DNA of 60,853 nucleotides, filler included. It is 8 parts of 8 records of this genome, joined end to end, with 100 filler letters (N's around TTAATTAATTAA, not from the genome) between each part and the next. Parts side by side here need not be neighbours in the genome. Positions count along the whole stretch, not along the records: positions 48,687 to 54,763 come from SRR31147125_501; 7 more parts are not named here. One strand, given 5' to 3'. Both the position numbers and the translations under genes were made by a program. Below, in pieces: positions 15,737 to 58,168 of the stretch. The notes under the pieces are model-generated. The model saw only the letters and a program-made list of their open reading frames with translations, was not told the origin of the DNA and searched no databases. Each line of letters starts with the position of its first letter. Within the stretch, counting starts at the first letter, position 1.

Positions 15737-15836
15737 NNNNNNNNNNNNNNNNNNNNNNNNNNNNNNNNNNNNNNNNNNNNTTAATTAATTAANNNNNNNN
15801 NNNNNNNNNNNNNNNNNNNNNNNNNNNNNNNNNNNN
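15737..15836. other. Artificial contig-join spacer
   Basis: N-run + TTAATTAATTAA + N-run, 100 bp; gene content changes phylum across it. Confidence 0.98.
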
Positions 15837-22525: not shown

Positions 22526-22625
22526 NNNNNNNNNNNNNNNNNNNNNNNNNNNNNNNNNNNNNNNNNNNNTTAATTAATTAANNNNNNNNNNNNNNNNNNN
22601 NNNNNNNNNNNNNNNNNNNNNNNNN
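22526..22625. other. Artificial contig-join spacer
   Basis: N-run + TTAATTAATTAA + N-run. Confidence 0.98.
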
Positions 22626-27740: not shown

Positions 27741-27840
27741 NNNNNNNNNNNNNNNNNNNNNNNNNNNNNNNNNNNNNNNNNNNNTTAATTAATTAANNNN
27801 NNNNNNNNNNNNNNNNNNNNNNNNNNNNNNNNNNNNNNNN
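27741..27840. other. Artificial contig-join spacer
   Basis: N-run + TTAATTAATTAA + N-run. Confidence 0.98.
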
Positions 27841-33415: not shown

Positions 33416-33515
33416 NNNNNNNNNNNNNNNNNNNNNNNNNNNNNNNNNNNNNNNNNNNNTTAATTAATTAANNNNNNNNNNNNNNNNNNNNNNNNNNNNN
33501 NNNNNNNNNNNNNNN
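33416..33515. other. Artificial contig-join spacer
   Basis: N-run + TTAATTAATTAA + N-run. Confidence 0.98.
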
Positions 33516-40494: not shown

Positions 40495-40594
40495 NNNNNN
40501 NNNNNNNNNNNNNNNNNNNNNNNNNNNNNNNNNNNNNNTTAATTAATTAANNNNNNNNNNNNNNNNNNNNNNNNNNNNNNNNNNNNNNNNNNNN
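40495..40594. other. Artificial contig-join spacer
   Basis: N-run + TTAATTAATTAA + N-run. Confidence 0.98.
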
Positions 40595-48586: not shown

Positions 48587-48686
48587 NNNNNNNNNNNNNN
48601 NNNNNNNNNNNNNNNNNNNNNNNNNNNNNNTTAATTAATTAANNNNNNNNNNNNNNNNNNNNNNNNNNNNNNNNNNNNNNNNNNNN
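48587..48686. other. Artificial contig-join spacer
   Basis: N-run + TTAATTAATTAA + N-run. Confidence 0.98.
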
Positions 48687-49986
48687 CGGGGGAAAACTGG
48701 AAAAACAATTACATGGGTGCGGTTGCGCTCTCCACTGAGAACCAGCTTAAGTCAAAAGAAGATAAATGCCGTTTTGCCGGTCGTGGTGGAATGGGCAGCC
48801 TTATGGGATATAAGAATGTACTTGCCCTGGTGGCACAGAGCACAGATAAGGTTCGCAAGCCGAGTGCATTGGTTAAAGCTGCCAACCTTAATGTTATTAA
48901 GGGGGTGGTTCAGCGCGGATTCAGCCTTTAAACCGGGGTGGCGGTGGAGGAACCTGGGCTGCTTACGATGTGCTCCAAGCGTTTCATGCCGTGCCTTACA
49001 ATAATTTTCGACCTGCAGGGAATGACATTCCGGAAAAATTATTTCGTGAAAATGTCGAACCCGATTATCACATCAAAACAGAGGCCTGCTACCGATGTGG
49101 TATTACCTGCCACAATAATATCTCTGAGAAAAATCAAGATGGGAGTCAGGGGGAGTTTCTCGCCAAATTTGATTACGAACCCCTCAATCTCCTCGGCACC
49201 AACATCGGTATTCACGATGCCGGACAAGCGGCACGGCTGATCCAGCTGGGCGACAACTATGGCATGGATTCCATCTCTCTTGGAGTGACCATTTCTTATG
49301 TGATGGCGTACAACGAGCGGCATCCAGAGTCGCCGATACTCAATGGAGCGACCTTTGGCGACTACGAAAAAGCAAGGGAATTGATTATAACGGCCGGTCT
49401 CGGGGAATGTCCTGGAGTCGGTCAGGGGTCGATGCGCCTTTCGGATCAGTTGCGTGAGCCGGAATATGCTTATCACGTGAAAGGCTTAGAGCTGCCGGCC
49501 TATCAGCCGGAGAGCAACCCCGGCTACGCCTGGGCCATTGCCGGTGGCCATATGTCGATGGGAACCTACGGATTGCTAACCCGTGAAGGAAAGTCCGACC
49601 TCGATTCCTGGGTACAAGGGATTACCGAGGACAAATTGCATATCGTTGGTTTCGATATGATCGGCCTGTGTAAGTTTTTCGACATCGCCAAAGGGATCGG
49701 AACCCAGATGGTGGTCGACTGCCTCAAGAGTGAGTTTAACTTCGAGGTCACGACCGACGACATTCGTGATGCCGTGCGGCGTGCCTTTCTACGTGGATTA
49801 GCCCTTGAGTTACGACAGGGGTACACGAAGGAAGAATTTCGCATTCCGGCTGAAACCATCGATAACCCGAATCCGCATATCAAGCTGCCGAATATTACCA
49901 ACAGAGAATTCATCGAAGAACTTGAAAATCGGGTCTGGGCAATTTTCGAACCGGAACTTGAAGGGATACTTCCAGAAAACAGATAG
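48687..49986 (+). CDS. Aldehyde:ferredoxin oxidoreductase (W/Mo AOR family), 5'-truncated, frameshifted near 48900-48930
   Basis: FAGRGGMGS..G.KN, CYRCGITC, DYEP, DNYGMDSIS, VKGLELPAY, GLCKF. Confidence 0.85.
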
Positions 49987-50024
49987 TAAAGTCTGTTAGA
50001 TTTCAGATCTCATTATTTCACAAA

Positions 50025-50051
50025 GAGCCCGACGCTTTCAGCGTCGGGCTC
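50025..50051 (+). terminator. GC-rich hairpin after AOR
   Basis: 12-bp stem GAGCCCGACGCT/AGCGTCGGGCTC. Confidence 0.6.
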
Positions 50052-50291
50052 GCTTGCCTTTTCAGGGTGAAATGTGAAAATTATGCCTCCCTTCCTCTCG
50101 GCTTTTCCCTCCACTTTTTCATGCATGATATGCCTTGCTCGGGGATGGCGGGCAGAGTTAGAAGCTGTTTGGCTTTTTCTCTGGGGAAGAGCTTGTTTAG
50201 GAGTGACTTGCCTGTTCTTTTTGTTGCGTGACAGCCTGATAAGGCGTATGTAAGGAGAGATTTTTGGCCATTCCAAACGACAGGTTTCACT

Positions 50292-51067
50292 ATGAACAGA
50301 ATTCACCAGATCTTTTTTCTCCGACAGGAACCACACGGGCCATCGTTGATGCCGTCAGCAAAGGGTTATCTTTTGATGTTAAGGCGACCCATGATTTGAC
50401 GCATGTTGATTGTCCGGAAACGACGGTTATCCGTGATGGCGTGGCCGTGATTGGTTTTCCTGTCTATGCCGGTCGGGTCCCGGAGGACTGCCTCAAGCGT
50501 CTGGCTTCTTTCTCGGCGGAGGGGATTCCGACGGTGCTTATTGCCATGTATGGAAACCGTGCGTTTGAGGATGCCCTGGTGGAGCTGCGTGATGTGATGT
50601 CCGAAAAAGGGTTTCGTGTTGTCGCCGCCGGGGCGTTTGTCGGGGAGCATTCTTATTCAACACCGGAGTGTCCGGTTGCTGTGGGGCGGCCCGATGTTCA
50701 GGATCTTGAAATCGCCAGGGACCTGGGCGAAAAGGTTGCGGGCCGATTATCCCGCGGAGATTTGACCACAGCCGCTATCGCTGGGAACAGCCCATATCGG
50801 GAGCGGACTCAATTTGGCGGTATTGCGCCAACCACCGATCCCGAGGTCTGTACTCTGTGCGGTCAGTGTGTCTCGGCCTGCCCGGTCAAAGTTGTTTCGA
50901 TGGCTGATTCGATCCAGACCGATAATCAAGGGTGTATTATGTGTTGTGCCTGCACCCGGGCCTGTTATTTCGGCGCGCGTACTTTCAATCACCCTGTCCT
51001 CGAAGAGAAACGTTCACTGTTACTAAAAAACTGCTCTGAGCCGAAAGCCCCACAACTGTTCTTTTGA
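50292..51067 (+). CDS. EFR1 family flavodoxin-ferredoxin fusion (true start probably the ATG at 50292, MNRIHQIFFSPTGTT, with a T-run indel)
   Basis: FSPTGTT, FPVYAG, YGNRAFEDAL, CTLCGQCVSACP, CIMCCACTRAC. Confidence 0.85.
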
Positions 51068-51100
51068 CGGGCCGTGTCGGGCGCCGAATCCAGAGATCAC

Positions 51101-51790
51101 TCAAGTCCTGAAATAGCGGCGCTCCGGGCGGCCGATGGTTCCGTATTCGACGTCAATTTTCAGGTGTCCTGTGGAGATCAGGTATTCCAGGTATTTTCGC
51201 GCCGTTGTTCTGCTCGCGCCGATATATTGGCCCATCTCTTCCGCTGTAAATCCCTTTCCCGGGGCTTTGTCAAATTGGGCGATGACTTTCTCCAGGGTGA
51301 GGGCATCAATCCCTTTCGGTAGCGTGGGATCCTTTGACCTGTCTCCGGCCGTTGGTCCATGGTGAAAGAAGCGATCAACGTCCTCCTGGCTCATGTCACC
51401 CAGTTGTTGCAGTTCAAGCCAGTGCTGGCGGTATTTGGTTAAGGCTTCCTCAAATCGTTCAAAGAAAACCGGTTTGATCATGTAGTCGAAGACGCCACCG
51501 CGTAATGCATTGTGAAGCAGTTTGACCTCTTTGGCGGCGGTGATGAGAATGACGTCACAGCTTGAATGGCGTGTTCTCAGAAGATCGAGAAAGTCCATCC
51601 CGTTACCATCCGGGAAATAGACATCGAGAAGAATCAGGTCAGGTTGAAGGGCATCGACCATCTGTTCTGCGTCGGCCAGCAGATTGACGACACCAGTGAC
51701 ATGGAAACCGGACACTTTTTCCACGTAAAGCTGGTGGGCTTTGGCGACTTTCAGATTGTCTTCAATGATCACGACCTCAATTGTCTTCAT
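51101..51790 (-). CDS. citB: CitB/DcuR family response regulator
   Basis: IIEDN, LLDVYFPDGNG, LITAA, DYMIKP, LPKGID..TL, SRTTARKYLE, YG.IGRP; start at the ATG at 51790. Confidence 0.88.
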   Translation of the reverse strand: MKTIEVVIIEDNLKVAKAHQLYVEKVSGFHVTGVVNLLADAEQMVDALQPDLILLDVYFPDGNGMDFLDLLRTRHSSCDVILITAAKEVKLLHNALRGGVFDYMIKPVFFERFEEALTKYRQHWLELQQLGDMSQEDVDRFFHHGPTAGDRSKDPTLPKGIDALTLEKVIAQFDKAPGKGFTAEEMGQYIGASRTTARKYLEYLISTGHLKIDVEYGTIGRPERRYFRT

Positions 51791-53402
51791 GACCACCTCT
51801 CTTTTTGGGGATTTCAATGACGAAAAGGGCACCTCCAAGATCGGACGTTTGCACGCTGATGCCACCGTTGAGTGCACGGAGCGTACTGCGAACGAGATAG
51901 AGTCCATATCCTCTGTTTGTCCCTGTTTTTCCCGAAACGCCCTTTTCAAATAAAGTTTTTAACATATTCCTCGGGATGCCGGGGCCCGAATCGGAAATTT
52001 CAAAAATGAGATCATTGCCGAAATCACTTAAAAAGAGATCAACCCTGGGTGGGCCTTGACCTGATAGTGCGGCATCGAACGCATTATTGATTACGTTTCC
52101 AAGGATCGTGACCAGCTGATTGCGATTGAGATCATCGGGAAGGTCGAGCATACGACTCTCCTGGTCGATGTTGAATTCAACCTTGAGTTCTGATGCGTGC
52201 ATGTATTTTCCGATGAGGAACGACGACAGGGTCGGGTCGGGAACCGCCTCCGTCAGAAACCGCACCAATAGCCGGTGCCCGGTTGTCTCTTCGGCGATGA
52301 AATCCAGAACTTCCTCGTAGGCTTCCATCTGCAGCATACCGACGATGGCATGCAGCCGGTTGTTATACTCATGGGTCTGGGCACGCAGCATGTCGGAGTA
52401 GGTCTGGACCTGGGTCAGTTCTTTGGCGATCAGGTCTATTTCGTCTTTGCGCCTAAAGGTCGCGACAGCACCGCGGATCTGCCGTTCATGGAGGATGGGG
52501 ACCATGCTGAAAATGATTTCTGTCCCACGGATAGAGATCTCCTGGTTGAGGATGCTGTCTCCCCGGTCAAAGATGGTTGAGAAATCGATCTGGGTAAAAA
52601 TATCGGTGACCGGACGGCCCAGGATTGAATTGCTCATCTGGGTTGCTGCCGCTTGGTTCAAAAGAGTGATCGTCCCCATTTCATCAGTTGCGATGATCCC
52701 TTCACGGATTGAAGCGATAATCGCTTCCCGCTCCTGGAACAGGTTGGCGATTTCATCCGGCTCCAGACCTAGGGTTGCTTTTTTGACTCCTCTGGCGATC
52801 AGAATGGCTGCCCCCAGACCGAGAGTAATAAAGACCCAGATATAGAAAAGCTCCTTTTCCAGGTATCCCTGAGTGACCTGGCGCACGTTTTCAACCAGAT
52901 AGCCCACGGAAACCATGCCGATGATTTCGAAGTTACTGTCAAAAATGGGTGCATTGCCACTGATGATCGCGCCTTCTTCGTCGGTACTTTTCGACAGGTA
53001 GGGGCGTCCATGGCGCAGGGCCCGCGATTCCAGAGGATCAATGAAGAGGGTTCCAACATTCTGTTTGTCCGTGCTGGAGACCTGAATGCCGTTGCGGTCG
53101 GTGACAAGGATCGTGGTCGCTTCCACGTTGAGACGGATTTCTTCTGTCAGGGTTTGCAGGGTGCCGAATTCATCCATGGTCTGGACCATCAGCTTCAACT
53201 CGGGAATCAGAGCGATCTGTTTCGCGGCTTGAAGGGCTCGTTTTTCCGTCTGATGCTGAACGATGTCATAGATCATCCGTGAAAACAGAATTCCGATAGA
53301 GAGCAATTGAAAAGCAATCAGGATGATAACAACCAGCGCAACGGAATCGATCAGCTTTCGCGGTTTGACTTTCTCTCTGAGGCGAAGGAACGGGGATCTC
53401 AT
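51777..53402 (-). CDS. citA: CitA/DcuS family sensor histidine kinase with an atypical periplasmic sCache domain
   Basis: Two TMs, LGLEP.EIA, PAS, LRAQTHEYNNRL H-box, ILGN..NAFDA, D.GPG, GYGL. Confidence 0.88.
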   Translation of the reverse strand: MRSPFLRLREKVKPRKLIDSVALVVIILIAFQLLSIGILFSRMIYDIVQHQTEKRALQAAKQIALIPELKLMVQTMDEFGTLQTLTEEIRLNVEATTILVTDRNGIQVSSTDKQNVGTLFIDPLESRALRHGRPYLSKSTDEEGAIISGNAPIFDSNFEIIGMVSVGYLVENVRQVTQGYLEKELFYIWVFITLGLGAAILIARGVKKATLGLEPDEIANLFQEREAIIASIREGIIATDEMGTITLLNQAAATQMSNSILGRPVTDIFTQIDFSTIFDRGDSILNQEISIRGTEIIFSMVPILHERQIRGAVATFRRKDEIDLIAKELTQVQTYSDMLRAQTHEYNNRLHAIVGMLQMEAYEEVLDFIAEETTGHRLLVRFLTEAVPDPTLSSFLIGKYMHASELKVEFNIDQESRMLDLPDDLNRNQLVTILGNVINNAFDAALSGQGPPRVDLFLSDFGNDLIFEISDSGPGIPRNMLKTLFEKGVSGKTGTNRGYGLYLVRSTLRALNGGISVQTSDLGGALFVIEIPKKRGGHEDN

Positions 53403-54763
53403 TCTGATCTCCGTTTTGAATAGAGGCGCTGAAAGACTGGAACCATGACCATCGCGAAGCTCAGTATCCAGAGCGTTATAGCGGTTGGGCTGGCAAACAG
53501 GATAGATAAATCCCCCGCACTGATGGAAAGAGCCCGGCGCAGGTTGTTTTCCAGTAATTCACCCAGGACGAAACCGAGGAGAAGGGGAATCAGCGGATAA
53601 TTGAACTTTTGCAGGAAATAGCTGAACAAACCGATCAGCACGACCAGGAGGAGTGAAAAGCTACTGGCATTCACTGCAAAACAGGCGATAAATGTTAAGA
53701 CCAGCAACAATGGTGCAAGAATTTGTCTGGGGATTTTGTACGTTTGCACGATCAGTCGCGGCAGGCTCAGATTAAGAACCAATAGCAGCAGATTGGCAAT
53801 GGCGACTGTGGCAATAATGACCCAGATCAGTTCTGCCTGTTGATTCAGAAGTTGAGGGCCGGGGGTGACATTATAGAGCAGAAGGGCCCCCAGAAGGATC
53901 GCGCTGGTCCCGCTTCCGGGGATTCCCAAGCTCAACAGCGGAAGCATCGTTCCGCCACAAGCGGCATTGTTGGCTGTTTCCCGGGTGAGAAGCCATTCAA
54001 GGCGTCCCAGACCCCGTCCCGTTTTCCGACGTGCGAGGGTTTCTTCCAGGCGTTCGCTCAGATCGCTCGCGACCATAGTTCCGCACGCTGGAAGAATGCC
54101 GACGAGAAACCCTCCGAGGGCGCTGCGCAGCAGGAGGAAACGATGAGTCAACAGATCATTCCAACGGTTGCGGCCGTTGTTAACTTTGATGTTTTCAGGT
54201 TTCCAGGTGGGGGACTCCAACAGAACAAAAATATGACTGACGACAAAGAGGCCAATGATCACCGTCGTGAATTCAATGCCATCGTAAAGTTGTGGTTGGT
54301 CAAAGGTAAAACGAAGGATTCCGGTGGTTGAATCAATACCGACACAAGCCATCATCAAGCCGAGACAAGTGCTGACAATTGTTCTGGCCGGATAACGATG
54401 AGTTCGAATGGCAAGGGCTGAAAAAGCAAAGATGATCAATACGAAATATTCAGCGGGACCGAACCCGGACTGAAGACGTTGAAACAGGGGGACCATCAGG
54501 ATTAATCCGGCAACGGCGAGCATGCCGCCCCCAAAGGCACCAATACAGCTCAGAGATAGTGCGGATCTGTCGATTTCATTCTCTTCAACGTCAAGGGTTG
54601 CTGATATCCTTTCACCATAAATGCACCCGTGATAGAGGGAGAGGAGAAAAACCAAGACCGATTCGATCGGTAACTTCAGCGCATAGGCAATTGGGGTCAT
54701 CAGAGCAACACAGTGAATAGCTCTGATTCCTGGAAGAGCACCGGCAACGGTTCCAAGAAAGAC
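53399..54763 (-). CDS. tctA: Tripartite tricarboxylate transporter permease TctA-like, divergent (5'-truncated by contig end)
   Basis: G.LPG, FGPAEYF, VG.D..TG..RFTF, E.ANNA, PLL.LGIPG, PGP, GFVLG..LE.N.RRAL. Confidence 0.85.
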   Translation of the reverse strand, partial: VFLGTVAGALPGIRAIHCVALMTPIAYALKLPIESVLVFLLSLYHGCIYGERISATLDVEENEIDRSALSLSCIGAFGGGMLAVAGLILMVPLFQRLQSGFGPAEYFVLIIFAFSALAIRTHRYPARTIVSTCLGLMMACVGIDSTTGILRFTFDQPQLYDGIEFTTVIIGLFVVSHIFVLLESPTWKPENIKVNNGRNRWNDLLTHRFLLLRSALGGFLVGILPACGTMVASDLSERLEETLARRKTGRGLGRLEWLLTRETANNAACGGTMLPLLSLGIPGSGTSAILLGALLLYNVTPGPQLLNQQAELIWVIIATVAIANLLLLVLNLSLPRLIVQTYKIPRQILAPLLLVLTFIACFAVNASSFSLLLVVLIGLFSYFLQKFNYPLIPLLLGFVLGELLENNLRRALSISAGDLSILFASPTAITLWILSFAMVMVPVFQRLYSKRRSE

Positions 54764-54863
54764 NNNNNNNNNNNNNNNNNNNNNNNNNNNNNNNNNNNNN
54801 NNNNNNNTTAATTAATTAANNNNNNNNNNNNNNNNNNNNNNNNNNNNNNNNNNNNNNNNNNNN
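54764..54863. other. Artificial contig-join spacer
   Basis: N-run + TTAATTAATTAA + N-run. Confidence 0.98.
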
Positions 54864-54967: not shown

Positions 54968-55663
54968 ATGATACGTACTGTAAACTTAAACAAGGTATTT
55001 CGCACAGAAGAAATTGAAACAACGGCACTTAACCATGTAAACTTCGAAGTTAAAAAAGGTGAATTTGTTGCCATTATGGGGCCTTCAGGATGTGGTAAAT
55101 CAACACTTTTAAACATTATTGGATTGCTTGATAACCCTAGCAATGGTGAATATTTCTTTGATGGTATTGAGGTCTCAAATTACAAAGAGAACAAACGAAC
55201 TGATCTTAGAAAAGGTAACATTGGTTTTGTGTTCCAAAGCTTTAACCTTATTGATGAGCTTAATGTGTACGAAAATGTAGAGCTACCACTTATCTACCTT
55301 AAAATGAGTACCAGTGAGCGCCGCAAAAAAGTAGAAGCAATTCTTGAAAGAATGAAAATTGGCCATCGTAAAAAGCACTTCCCACAACAACTTTCTGGTG
55401 GACAACAGCAAAGAGTTGCTATCAGTAGGGCAATTGTTGCGGGGCCAAAATTAATACTTGCCGATGAGCCCACAGGTAACCTCGATTCTAAACATGGTTT
55501 AGAAGTTATGAACCTGTTAAAAGAACTTAACGATGAAGGTACTACCATTGTAATGGTTACGCATAGTAAACGCGACTCTGAATTCGCTGCCAGGGTAGTA
55601 AACTTATTCGATGGACACATTATTACAGAAAACATAAATGCTGTTGTTGAAACAACTATCTGA
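54968..55663 (+). CDS. ABC transporter ATP-binding protein (LolD/MacB-type)
   Basis: GPSGCGKST, LSGGQQQR, LADEPTGNLD, VTH. Confidence 0.95.
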   Translation: MIRTVNLNKVFRTEEIETTALNHVNFEVKKGEFVAIMGPSGCGKSTLLNIIGLLDNPSNGEYFFDGIEVSNYKENKRTDLRKGNIGFVFQSFNLIDELNVYENVELPLIYLKMSTSERRKKVEAILERMKIGHRKKHFPQQLSGGQQQRVAISRAIVAGPKLILADEPTGNLDSKHGLEVMNLLKELNDEGTTIVMVTHSKRDSEFAARVVNLFDGHIITENINAVVETTI

Positions 55664-55738: not shown

Positions 55739-58168
55739 ATGATAGCTCATTACCTTAAAATGACCTGGAGAGAATTCAGAAAAGACTCTCTTTACACATG
55801 GATAAAAATTGGTGGGTTTGCAATGGGTATTGCAGCATGTTTGTTAATAGTACTTTATACCAAACATGAATTGAGCTACGATAAACATTACACAAAAACA
55901 TCACAAATTTATCGTGTAGTCGGTGTAGCTCAACAACCTAATGAATTAGTAAAATTAACACATTTTCAGGCTCCCATGGCTAAGGCATTAATGGACGAAT
56001 TCCCGGAAATTGAAAAGTCGGGGCGATTCAATGCAGTTGAACTTTTTGGCGCAGGTGATAACCAGATACGAAGTGCTGATGCCTTAGAAAATTCATATGA
56101 ACAAGGATTTGTTTTTGCCGATCAAGAGATTCTTGATATTCTCGAAGTACCTTTTGTTTATGGAGATGCAAAAAAAGCGCTCTTAAATGCTAATTCAATC
56201 GTTATTACCAAAAGCAAGGCCGATAAATTTTTCCCCAACGAAAATCCTGTTGGAAAGTCCATGATTGTTAATAATAATGTCGAAGACCCATTCACTGTTA
56301 CTGGTGTAATCGAAGATTTTCCAACTAATTCGCATGTCAATTTTGATTATTTTATTGCCCTCCACCCGAATATATTTTACCCTGGTGAACAGACACGCTG
56401 GACTTCCTGGAATTATATTACTTATGTCCTGGTTAATCCGGAAACAAATATCCAGGAGCTGGAAAAAAAATTAAGGTTGATTGCCATAAAATATATGGCT
56501 CCTGCTTTTGAAGAAGAGGGGGATGTATTTGCCGAAGTAATTAAGGAAAAACTAAATTTTGAATTACAGCCCATCGATAACATTTATCTTAAATCAAGTG
56601 ACATTTATCCAGATGGCTTTGCTAGAGGTGATATCCGTTTTGTTTGGTTATTTGTTGCAATTGCCCTGTTTATACTTATTATCGCTTGCGTAAATTTTAT
56701 CAACCTGTCTACAGCTCGATCATCAAACCGTGCTAAAGAAGTTGGATTAAGGAAAACAATTGGTGCCAGGAAAAAATATGTTATCAATCAATTCTTTTTT
56801 GAATCGATATCGTATTCCATAATTTCGGTTGCAGCAGGAGTATTAATTTCATTCCTCATACTACCACTTTTTAACGAGCTATCTGGCAAACAATTAACAA
56901 TTCCTATTTCTAATATGTATTTCATCCCTACCCTAATTGCTACAGCAATTGTTATTGGTATTGCTGCTGGTGCATACCCTTCTTTTTACCTTTCTTCTTT
57001 TAAACCGATAAAAGTTTTAAAAGGAAATTTCAGCAGCAGTAAAGGCAAGTCAGGTTTAAGAAACGGACTGGTTGTTTTTCAATTTACGGCTTCTATTATT
57101 TTAATTATCAGCACCATTGTTGTTCACAATCAGTTAAATTTTATTCTAAACAAAAAATTAGGATTTCAGAAAGACCAACTTGTTATCTTACACGGCACAA
57201 CTACTTTAGATAATAACATCAATTCATTTAAAAATGAGCTAAAGAAAATACCAGCCGTACAAAATGTTAGCATTAGTAATTACCTGCCTATAAAAGGTAC
57301 AATGCGTAATGGTAATTCTTTTTTTAAAGAAGGAAGAAACAAAATTGACGAATCAATTGGAGGACAGAGGTGGCGTGTTGATTACGATTATATTGAAACG
57401 CTGGGAATGAAGATAGTTGATGGCCGAAATTTCTCGGAAGAAATTACAACAGATTCAAGAGCAGTTATTATTAATCAAATGATGGTTAATGAGCTTGGTT
57501 TAGAAAATCCTGTCGGGAAAAAGATCACAAATGGATATGATACCTGGGAGGTAATTGGAGTTGTAGAAGATTTTCATTTTGAAAGCATAAAATACGATAT
57601 TTCACCTCTTGCTATGAATCTTGGGAATAGCACAGAAACCATGGCTATAAAAATCCAAAGTCAGGATGTTGGTAATACGTTAGAAGTTATTCAACAAAAA
57701 TGGAACGATTTCTCGCCTAACCAATCGTTTCGATATTCTTTTCTTGACTCGGATTTTGCTTTGATGTACAAAGATGTTGAAAGACTTGGTCAAATTTTCT
57801 TTGTATTCGCCATGCTTGCCATTTTAATTGCTTGCTTAGGTTTATTTGGACTTGCCGAGTACATCACCAAGGGAAGGATTAAAGAGATAGGGGTTAGAAA
57901 AGTAAATGGCGCAAGAAATTTAAATATCCTCGGAATCTTAAATAAAGATTTTATTGCATGGGTATTTGTGTCATTCATAATTGCATCGCCCATTGCATGG
58001 ATAGCAATGAATAAGTACCTGCAAAATTTTGCCTACAAAATTGAGATTGGTTGGTGGATTTTTATTACAGCAGGCTTATCAACATTAATTATTGCAATTG
58101 CAACCGTGAGCTGGCAAAGTTGGAGGGCAGCAAGCAGGAATCCGGTGAAGGCGCTGCGTTATGAATAA
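55739..58168 (+). CDS. MacB/FtsX family ABC permease (Bacteroidota duplicated-domain type)
   Basis: ELSYD, ACVNFINL, KEVGLRK, LVVFQF, KEIGVRKVNGA, NPVKALRYE. Confidence 0.93.
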   Translation: MIAHYLKMTWREFRKDSLYTWIKIGGFAMGIAACLLIVLYTKHELSYDKHYTKTSQIYRVVGVAQQPNELVKLTHFQAPMAKALMDEFPEIEKSGRFNAVELFGAGDNQIRSADALENSYEQGFVFADQEILDILEVPFVYGDAKKALLNANSIVITKSKADKFFPNENPVGKSMIVNNNVEDPFTVTGVIEDFPTNSHVNFDYFIALHPNIFYPGEQTRWTSWNYITYVLVNPETNIQELEKKLRLIAIKYMAPAFEEEGDVFAEVIKEKLNFELQPIDNIYLKSSDIYPDGFARGDIRFVWLFVAIALFILIIACVNFINLSTARSSNRAKEVGLRKTIGARKKYVINQFFFESISYSIISVAAGVLISFLILPLFNELSGKQLTIPISNMYFIPTLIATAIVIGIAAGAYPSFYLSSFKPIKVLKGNFSSSKGKSGLRNGLVVFQFTASIILIISTIVVHNQLNFILNKKLGFQKDQLVILHGTTTLDNNINSFKNELKKIPAVQNVSISNYLPIKGTMRNGNSFFKEGRNKIDESIGGQRWRVDYDYIETLGMKIVDGRNFSEEITTDSRAVIINQMMVNELGLENPVGKKITNGYDTWEVIGVVEDFHFESIKYDISPLAMNLGNSTETMAIKIQSQDVGNTLEVIQQKWNDFSPNQSFRYSFLDSDFALMYKDVERLGQIFFVFAMLAILIACLGLFGLAEYITKGRIKEIGVRKVNGARNLNILGILNKDFIAWVFVSFIIASPIAWIAMNKYLQNFAYKIEIGWWIFITAGLSTLIIAIATVSWQSWRAASRNPVKALRYE

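Follow-up and report, generated by a model that had tools for sequence, protein, structure and literature searches.

A hairpin-less TctA paralogue encoded with a pocket-altered CitA/DcuS-family kinase: a candidate receptor derived from a tripartite tricarboxylate transporter

The stretch of DNA considered here (the window, positions 1-60853, composed of eight contigs) carries on one contig three translationally coupled minus-strand genes, which encode a paralogue of TctA, the large membrane subunit of tripartite tricarboxylate transporters (TTT), here called TctA', a histidine kinase of the CitA/DcuS family and a response regulator of the DpiA/DcuR/CitB type. TctA' lacks a hairpin segment present in all canonical TctA proteins aligned with it, and the kinase lacks the basic residues with which characterized relatives bind carboxylates. 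Both losses are conserved in a clade of related loci, where the three genes form the 3' part of a five-gene operon, tctC'-tctB'-tctA'-kinase-regulator, that adjoins a divergent canonical tctCBA operon. The explanation favoured here, to which about an even chance is given, is that a TTT paralogue complex, impaired in transport, serves a kinase devoid of a carboxylate pocket as its receptor for the ligand and controls the adjacent true transporter.

The tctA' gene (53399..54763, minus strand; PF01970) has 454 codons and is cut at its 5' end by the end of the contig, the kinase gene (51777..53402, minus strand) encodes 541 aa and the regulator gene (51101..51790, minus strand) 229 aa. The kinase ATG (53402-53400), preceded by GGAG 6 nt upstream, overlaps the TctA' stop codon (53401-53399) in a 4-nt ATGA stop/start overlap at 53399..53402, and the kinase stop and the regulator start overlap by 14 nt at 51777..51790. 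A tight operon with these two overlaps had been described in an earlier interpretation of the window (the sequence-only reading), and both junctions were found as described; the coupling of the three genes holds, but the full unit is a five-gene operon, interrupted here by the contig end. The open reading frames (ORFs) were called at 53399..54700, 51777..53402 and 51101..51949, all on the minus strand. The ATG at 54700 was rejected as the start of TctA', the frame being open to the last base of the contig, 54763. A longer, TTG-started regulator ORF was likewise rejected because the receiver domain begins only at residue 57 of that longest ORF, and the start was placed at the ATG at 51790, with AGAGGTGG upstream. 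The same reading had taken the ORFs as intact, which is correct for TctA' in that no internal stop occurs, but the ORF is incomplete: alignment with the 480-aa, 85%-identical protein P0004 showed that 26 N-terminal residues (26 codons) are missing, because the contig ends and not through mutation. For the same reason tctB' and tctC' are not visible in the window.

The window TctA' matched PF01970 (the TctA family, TC 2.A.80) with 312 bits (cut-off 28.9), covering only profile positions 89-423. The TctA' of the related locus L001 covers positions 93-423, and canonical neighbours cover 2-423. In the homologue search 8000 candidates were scored, 3291 of them reached E ≤ 0.001 and the best 120 were listed; among these 120, N.PG is absent at residues 60-110 from 36 proteins (P0004-P0038 and P0040) and present in 84. 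The nature of the difference was revealed by an alignment of 33 sequences, comprising 23 members of the clade (46-85% identity, 478-493 residues) and 10 canonical TctAs from Psychrobacter, Moraxella, Neisseria, cyanobacteria and others. A stretch of 14-17 residues is absent in 23/23 clade proteins, 17 residues in the window protein, and in 10/10 canonical proteins this stretch reads ...ILLNxPGDxxAVxTTLDGYP.... In the window the deletion falls at the codons for Val59 and Glu60 of the partial protein (54584..54589, minus strand; alignment columns 91-107).

The deletion is accompanied by changes in the motif G-Hy3-G-Hy3-G-Hy2-P-G-Hy-G, which is duplicated in transmembrane segments TM1 and TM7 of TTT permeases (Winnen 2003, as quoted in the available text of PMC5812351). 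The first copy departs from the motif, reading G-TVA-G-AL-P-G-I-R, with Arg in place of the final Gly, followed by AIH and not PIN. This alteration is clade-wide, PG[IL]RAIH (with K/H variants in place of R) being found in 23/23 clade members as against PG[IL]GPING in 10/10 canonical proteins. The second copy is G-ILPACG in the subclade of the window protein, where P-A replaces P-G; the other clade members have LPGxG. The hairpin of the second half of the protein, LGIPGSGTSAILLGALLLYNVTPGP (LGIPGSGT...NITPGP type), is retained.

The possible function of the deleted segment can be approached through an AlphaFold3 model of the Bordetella BctCBA system, presented as an elevator-type transporter in the accessible part of a preprint (bioRxiv 10.64898/2026.07.27.740893). 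In the BctA model of the same source, the citrate and Na+ sites are built by the glycine motifs together with a pair of mirror-related hairpins, Hp_in (L85-R105) and Hp_out (T327-I348). When G26-G40 of P0118, its glycine motif, is used to match the numberings, canonical TctA is one residue off BctA, and the deleted segment corresponds by position in the alignment to the tip and second arm of Hp_in. In an AlphaFold2 model of the canonical TctA beside the clade operon in L001 (mean predicted local distance difference test score, pLDDT, 82.7), helices span residues 60-85, 91-105 and 109-142; in the model of hairpin-less P0004 (pLDDT 82.9, predicted template modelling score, pTM, 0.86), helix 59-85 runs straight to helix 92-126. 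Both models contain the second-half hairpin, and that of P0004 keeps the overall 12-TM TctA fold. No TTT permease structure is known to have been solved, and Foldseek comparison of the canonical TctA model with the PDB gave zero matches at E ≤ 0.001. The exhaustive VIA comparison of the same model pointed to transporters of the elevator type, with Z 8.5 for Pho90 and Drosophila INDY, 7.7 for IseQM (of the TRAP type), 7.5 for ArsB, 7.3 for SiaQM and 7.1 for VcINDY, with the unrelated YS1 transporter in the top row at Z 10.7, and such Z values can be unspecific for helical proteins. With Hp_in lost, TctA' would probably be unable to finish a transport cycle, as is suggested by the alignment, the two AlphaFold2 models and the preprint model of BctA.

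The kinase has the CitA/DcuS architecture, consisting of TM1, a periplasmic PAS domain (sCache_3_2), TM2, a cytoplasmic PAS domain, a SpoOB-type DHp and HATPase, as indicated by matches to the Pfam families sCache_3_2, PAS, SPOB_a and HATPase_c and by PDB matches to periplasmic and cytoplasmic PAS domains of CitA and DcuS. Its scores stayed below the NCBIfam cut-offs for the best model, DcuS/MalK (NF008298, 376 versus 520), and for MalK (274 versus 800) and DpiB (264 versus 656). The catalytic boxes are kept in columns invariant among orthologues: the phospho-accepting His344 within THEYNNRLH, an N-box at residue 436, and the G-boxes DSGPG (471) and GYGL (498).

According to the available text of PMC3353115, citrate is contacted in Klebsiella CitA by T58, R66, H69, S101, L102, R107, K109 and S124, and exchange of R66, H69, R107 or K109 for Ala raised the dissociation constant 38- to >300-fold. 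The pocket was mapped with HMMER alignments to Klebsiella CitA (1p0z, 2v9a, 6lnp) and Geobacillus CitA (8bgb), in which GIQVSS of the window kinase aligns with GQRLYH of Klebsiella and GIRYAH of Geobacillus, and IISGNAP aligns with SLRGKSP and AIRGKAP, respectively. Seven of the eight citrate contacts are changed (T58L, R66Q, H69S, S101E, L102E, R107S and K109N), S124 alone being kept. The positions of Arg66, His69, Arg107 and Lys109 are thus taken by Gln107, Ser110, Ser148 and Asn150, whose codons lie within 52953..53084 (minus strand), and none of them is basic.

These substitutions extend beyond the window. In all 16 clade kinases sampled (56-100% identity in the sensor domain) the four positions hold Q (L in one), S/N, S/N and N/H, which confirms that the pocket is devoid of carboxylate-binding basic residues throughout the clade. 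A sister group of kinases, from Desulforhopalus and others (n=8, 41-46% identity), has I/V, H, R/L/T and S/T and likewise adjoins TTT genes, and in more distant kinases R/H, H, R and K occur in five of the nine sampled. The most conserved part of the clade kinases is TM2 with the adjoining linker (19/25 and 13/17 positions invariant), ahead of DHp (46/75) and the ATPase domain (66/141). The TM2 motif LEK..F.I..FITLGL.AAI.IA is common to the sister group and absent from more distant kinases. The periplasmic PAS domain, with 45/139 (32%) invariant positions, is as constrained as the cytoplasmic one (30/98, 31%). Both membrane components had been described beforehand as having lost family-defining residues while the kinase boxes and the receiver Asp were kept, and this was borne out. 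The description of the kinase as ligand-blind agrees with the loss of the carboxylate-binding residues but is too strong, because the substitutes are conserved and the periplasmic PAS domain is still constrained.

The regulator combines a receiver (PF00072, 68.7 bits) with a DpiA-like helix-turn-helix domain (PF20714, HTH_64, 42.9 bits). Since it scored below the NCBIfam cut-offs for DcuR (169 bits, cut-off 262) and DpiA (165 bits, cut-off 264), it was assigned to the family and not as an equivalog. Its translation shows Asp56, Thr84 and Lys106, which we take to be the functional residues of the receiver.

What is missing at the contig end was found in relatives. Ten clade loci (L001, L097-L103, L188 and L189) were mapped with tblastn and Pfam, taking in flanks of about 8 kb as far as the contigs extended. 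The order tctC'-tctB'-tctA'-kinase-regulator is complete in nine of the ten, the contig of L100 ending about 0.5 kb past tctA', and tctB and tctC are encoded with tctA' in 9/9 relatives with upstream DNA. The products are TctC' of about 325 aa (mature-type), TctB' of 146 aa, TctA' of 473-493 aa, a kinase of 533-543 aa and a regulator of 228-229 aa. All measured intergenic distances lie between -14 and +11 nt; the ATGA overlap of tctA' and the kinase gene recurs in L097, L098, L099 and L189, and the kinase and regulator genes overlap by 14 nt in L097 and L101 and by 4 nt in six more loci. TctC' aligns collinearly with the canonical TctC next door (42-48% identity by tblastn with the L001 protein) and has a signal peptide, paired cysteines and the motifs GGIGAVA, SSGS and GSxGSQDWMK, features that make it look like a working periplasmic binding protein. 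In TctB', 58/146 columns are invariant across eight sequences.

Directly upstream of tctC', a divergent full-length TTT operon is present in 9/9 assessable loci, the contig of L101 ending before it. The canonical tctCBA found in six of them (L001, L099, L100, L103, L188 and L189) is of one closely related type and has NVPG; L097, L098 and L102 carry a more distant tctCBA, with NIPG in the two that were translated (L097 and L102). The relatives therefore show a transporter paralogue co-encoded with a kinase and a regulator beside a true transporter, of which the window contains the three 3' genes. The upstream tctB and tctC genes and the second, canonical tctA that the sequence-only reading had proposed to look for are thus accounted for in relatives. 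It had also proposed to test whether NxPG-less TctA and pocketless CitA co-occur, and they do so at 9/10 loci, whereas kinases beside canonical tctCBA keep R-H-R-K/F. As a further, indirect indication from unassembled data, the size of the longest contig is identical to that of one of 39 independently found clade kinases for 25 of the 36 TctA' proteins without the hairpin.

Upstream of the operon, a non-coding element of about 100 nt was observed just before tctC' (L001:6360-6510, L097:6330-6530, and in L098, L099, L102, L103, L188 and L189). It has 46 invariant positions in these eight loci in spite of saturated synonymous sites, with the consensus TGTAAA..GTT.TG.AA.TA...TTTCTGT...TTTTTG....TTTTGAAA. 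Scans gave no Rfam match and no sigma-70 promoter or terminator consensus for it. It may be a leader or the operator to which the regulator binds, and because of the contig cut it lies outside the window.

In three loci the TTT operons are found together with a gene for an RraA-like aldolase (L001:2564-3073, L097:2061-2582 and L054:4-489), and L097 also carries genes for an AbrB-family membrane protein and a TauE/SafE sulfite-exporter-like protein. These neighbours hint that the acid transported and sensed may be a sulfonated one or a di- or tricarboxylate of the hydroxy-oxo type; judging from the transporter family and the RraA-like aldolases, an organic di- or tricarboxylate would be our guess for the ligand.

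The hairpin-less proteins form a single lineage. When the clade profile was run against 1.84 billion 50%-identity representatives, a single clade representative stood out, P0018 with 768 bits, and the next protein, a canonical TctA, scored 482 bits. The NCBI names of two clade proteins, P0013 and P0020, point to Desulfuromusa kysingii and Pelobacter seleniigenes. In a quick IQ-TREE tree the clade together with P0125 is monophyletic (SH-aLRT support 100, stem 0.51) and is nested among canonical TctAs, apart from the TctAs encoded next door. A recent duplication of the adjacent canonical tctA was rejected, as the tree separates TctA' from the neighbour's group. P0125 itself (476 aa, 37% identity) carries PGIRAIH and the hairpin deletion, is long-branched and lower-scoring, and is known from metagenomes only; among 400 sampled genomes of the phylum it was not found, the clade gene of genome G001 apart. 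In another protein, P0141 (485 aa, from metagenome-assembled genomes (MAGs) of Pseudomonadota), NxPG has disappeared independently, along with some of the second glycine motif, and this protein stands elsewhere in the tree on a long branch. The clade tctA' occurs in 10/72 genomes of the family of G001, Geopsychrobacteraceae. In a sample of the order (201 genomes) nine genomes matched at E ≤ 1e-100, eight with clade genes of the same family and one, G013, with a canonical gene. A scan of genome contigs with the clade alignment placed 79 of the 80 loci listed at 34-45% identity; the only clade member among the loci listed was L001, and the others examined were canonical or outside the clade. In a scan of metagenome contigs with the window TctA', no close relative such as P0004 or P0005 (85% and 73% identity) appeared among the matches listed, the best having 36% identity.

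Selection was measured as the ratio of non-synonymous to synonymous substitution rates (dN/dS) on the pair L099/L189 (dS 0.3-0.5), the other three of four pairs being saturated (dS >1 or undefined). The values were 0.03 for TctC', 0.15 for TctB', 0.12 for TctA', 0.06 for the kinase and 0.03 for the regulator, and for the adjacent canonical operon 0.04 for TctC, 0.12 for TctB and 0.03 for TctA. TctA' is maintained by purifying selection, a point that the sequence-only reading had left to be checked, and the constraint is about four times more relaxed than that on canonical TctA. With this, all comparative checks put forward in that reading turned out favourably for it.

The following mechanism may be proposed, a fuller version of the co-sensor relay suggested in the sequence-only reading, which the comparisons support in part. 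TctC' would be an intact periplasmic binding protein which, when loaded with its ligand, docks on TctB'A', a TTT-derived membrane complex without Hp_in whose transport cycle is probably blocked. The kinase would be unable to sense an organic acid alone because the basic carboxylate-binding residues of its PAS domain are lost, and the state of TctB'A' would be relayed to it, most likely within the membrane or the periplasm. The kinase would then phosphorylate the DpiA/DcuR-type regulator, and this would turn on the divergent canonical tctCBA operon and probably its own operon too. In its strongest form, which we hold tentatively and consider somewhat less probable than not, the whole tripartite transporter was copied into a dedicated receptor, the large subunit of which has become cargo-dead, with docking read in the membrane by the pocketless kinase.

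Several points weigh against the receptor interpretation. The role assigned to Hp_in comes from an in-silico preprint model and a modest likeness to elevator transporters (VIA Z 7-8.5), and because it comes from models, the functional meaning of the deletion is deduced rather than demonstrated. TctA' keeps Hp_out, a second glycine motif (P-A-C-G in the window subclade) and a low dN/dS, and therefore might be a transporter with an altered mechanism. The substituted pocket residues (Q, S/N, S/N, N/H) are conserved and the periplasmic PAS domain is constrained, which is how a domain that binds a new ligand or TctC' may also look. The physical link of TctA', TctB' and TctC' with the kinase is hypothetical. 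As the clade has a single origin, the joint loss of hairpin and pocket counts as one evolutionary observation. Finally, tctB', tctC' and the canonical operon are unseen in the window itself owing to the contig cut.

Some of these points lead to a different view, namely that TctC'B'A' is a working transporter with changed coupling or substrate (for example with one Na+ site fewer) that is merely co-transcribed with its regulators, the kinase sensing through its cytoplasmic PAS domain or a new periplasmic ligand. Purifying selection on TctA' (dN/dS 0.12) would be expected of such a transporter, as would the kept Hp_out (LGIPGSGT), the scaffold helices and the confidently predicted fold (pTM 0.86), and the conserved substitutes in the kinase pocket fit a new ligand. 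Adjacency of transporters and two-component systems is moreover common, an example in the accessible text of PMC3353115 being CitAB and tctCBA of C. glutamicum. We nevertheless regard this view as unlikely. A canonical TTT operon adjoins in 9/9 assessable loci, and since its TctC is 42-48% identical to TctC', a further transporter would only duplicate the uptake of a similar ligand. The deletion takes away an entire arm of a hairpin in the modelled binding site, dN/dS is about fourfold higher for TctA' than for the canonical TctA of the same two genomes, and the hairpin loss and the loss of the kinase pocket coincide.

A comparably small chance is given to a second explanation, in which only the binding protein counts: once loaded with ligand, TctC' would itself dock on the kinase at the periplasmic PAS domain, in the manner of BctC and BctE, and TctB'A' would be a dispensable remnant or a competitor for docking. 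There is a precedent in BctC, which signals to the kinase BctE according to the available parts of bioRxiv 10.64898/2026.07.27.740893 and PMC8050422. TctC' is intact, with its signal peptide and binding-protein motifs, and shows a dN/dS of 0.03, the lowest of the operon; the periplasmic PAS domain is constrained and its new pocket residues are conserved. A dispensable TctB'A' is, however, difficult to reconcile with the presence of TctB' and TctA' in every locus, translationally coupled to the kinase, with the purifying selection on both (0.15 and 0.12) and the 58/146 invariant columns of TctB', and with the finding that TM2, and not the periplasmic domain, is the most conserved part of the kinase.

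The window gene is truncated, and the G+C of its contig is unlike that of its neighbours in the concatenated record, which could speak for decay in one strain (a pseudogene) or for a faulty, chimeric assembly. Either is very improbable, since the truncation is a contig end and not a mutation, 36 proteins (46-85% identity) share these features, nine independent genomes contain this operon, and dN/dS is far below 1; pseudogene formation was rejected on the ground of this clade-wide conservation, the earlier proviso that close relatives might be canonical having turned out otherwise, with 36 of the best 120 TctA homologues lacking NxPG and forming one conserved clade.

Transporters or their relatives are known as inputs of sensor kinases in the major facilitator superfamily (MFS; UhpC), the DAACS and Dcu families (DctA, DcuB), ABC transporters (Bce, Pst) and SLC5 fusions. 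The receptor interpretation comes closest to UhpC-UhpB-UhpA of E. coli, in which a transporter paralogue is the membrane receptor of a kinase and induces the adjacent gene for the true transporter. As there, a transporter paralogue is encoded with a kinase and a regulator, and the real transporter lies next door. UhpC, however, belongs to the MFS and is not known to work with a binding protein, nor is a periplasmic PAS domain known in UhpB, whereas the present system, known from sequence alone, would join a three-part elevator-type TTT complex to a CitA/DcuS-family kinase with a disabled pocket. The logic would be that of UhpC/UhpB and new for the TTT family, as far as comparative evidence can suggest. 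DcuS binds C4-dicarboxylates through R107/H110/R147, and unlike it the window kinase keeps none of the equivalent residues.

In E. coli, DctA and DcuB are co-sensors that form a sensor unit with DcuS (PMC4280142 and PMC5703999, in the parts available). The kinase family is the same and a carboxylate transporter is the proposed partner, but DctA and DcuB belong to other families, transport actively and are not known to share a coupled operon with dcuS. In Bordetella pertussis, the TctC-family protein BctC feeds a signal to the kinase that controls a tctCBA-type operon (accessible text of bioRxiv 10.64898/2026.07.27.740893 and PMC8050422). There BctC works in transport as well as in signalling, together with a single active BctBA, the same accessible text mentions no dedicated degenerate TctA/TctB pair, and the sensor domain of BctE is given as 2CSK_N, not PAS/Cache (PMC8050422). 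CitA-CitB of C. glutamicum activates its tctCBA operon; by the available text of PMC3353115, citrate is held to be sensed directly by CitA there, and the sole TTT system is a functional transporter. In CbrA and CrbS an SLC5 transporter fold provides the kinase input within a single polypeptide, and CbrA, as far as the accessible sources describe it, still transports; here, in contrast, separate TTT-family proteins are involved. Neither a TTT permease paralogue specialised for sensing nor a pocketless CitA-family kinase coupled to a TTT paralogue was found in the full-text literature searched, including the accessible portions of PMC5812351 and PMC8050422, with subscription-only papers and supplements lying outside that scope.

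Two other arrangements are of interest for the origin of the system. At L104:2295-10892, in a genome of the same order, a canonical tctCBA stands between two pocket-intact CitA/DcuS-type systems, and the two flanking kinases are one DcuS-like (R-H-R-F) and one CitA-like (R-H-R-K). At L054:435-9407, in a Desulforhopalus MAG, two TTT operons surround a convergent kinase-regulator pair. The second TctA there (499 aa) keeps the hairpin (DIPGD) and has an altered first motif, PGISAANG; the kinase has the pocket I-H-R-S and the shared TM2 motif, and the canonical tctCBA is divergent from the kinase-regulator pair. The clade represents an end state in which the hairpin is deleted, the four basic pocket residues are gone and all genes are in one coupled operon. 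The series L104, L054, clade is suggestive of steps in the making of a sensor, with L054 a possible intermediate; it rests on three kinds of locus, and the second TctA of L054 is not the sister of the clade in the quick tree.

As for the source DNA, the eight contigs of the window (5.1-15.7 kb) are separated by seven artificial N44-TTAATTAATTAA-N44 joints at 15737-15836, 22526-22625, 27741-27840, 33416-33515, 40495-40594, 48587-48686 and 54764-54863. The operon contig extends over 48687-54763 (6077 bp) with a G+C of 0.513, against 0.30-0.42 for the other seven, and its last joint (54764..54863, no strand) marks the end of the contig carrying tctA', kinase and regulator. Because G+C ranges over 0.30-0.51 across the pieces, these may originate from different organisms, in a bin or a concatenated draft, and since they were joined artificially, gene neighbourhood across a joint carries no meaning. 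The genes at both ends of the 6077-bp contig are interrupted by the contig ends. At its start, 48901-49986 (plus strand) encodes the C-terminal two-thirds of an aldehyde:ferredoxin oxidoreductase, matching AFOR_C only, and 50264-51067 (plus strand) encodes a 267-aa protein whose C-terminus is an EFR1-type 4Fe-4S ferredoxin. Both are convergent with the regulator, and neither is kept beside the operon in relatives. The adjacent contig carries an ABC exporter pair unrelated to the TctA'-kinase operon: an ATPase (54968-55663, plus strand) nearest to the model of the darobactin exporter DarD (283 bits, below the cut-off of 375) and a permease (55739-58168, plus strand) of 809 aa, of the duplicated MacB/FtsX type, with an ADOP match of 290 bits (below the cut-off of 622). 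As this pair, to the right of 54863, belongs to another contig, it is uninformative for the TctA' locus.

For most sensor kinases we know of no account of how the signal is acquired, and the system described here is relevant to research on two-component signalling as well as on TTT and TRAP-type transporters. If the proposed interpretation is true, it would be the first 'transport-dead' sensor of the elevator type or the TTT family, and one genome would hold a natural separation-of-function pair, a sensing and a transporting TTT system with binding proteins 42-48% identical. It would mean that a CitA-type PAS domain can persist after the loss of its ligand site, and would offer a handle on the part played by the N-half hairpin in the transport mechanism of TTT permeases. 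It also carries a warning for annotation, in that some genes labelled 'tripartite tricarboxylate transporter permease' probably do not encode transporters.

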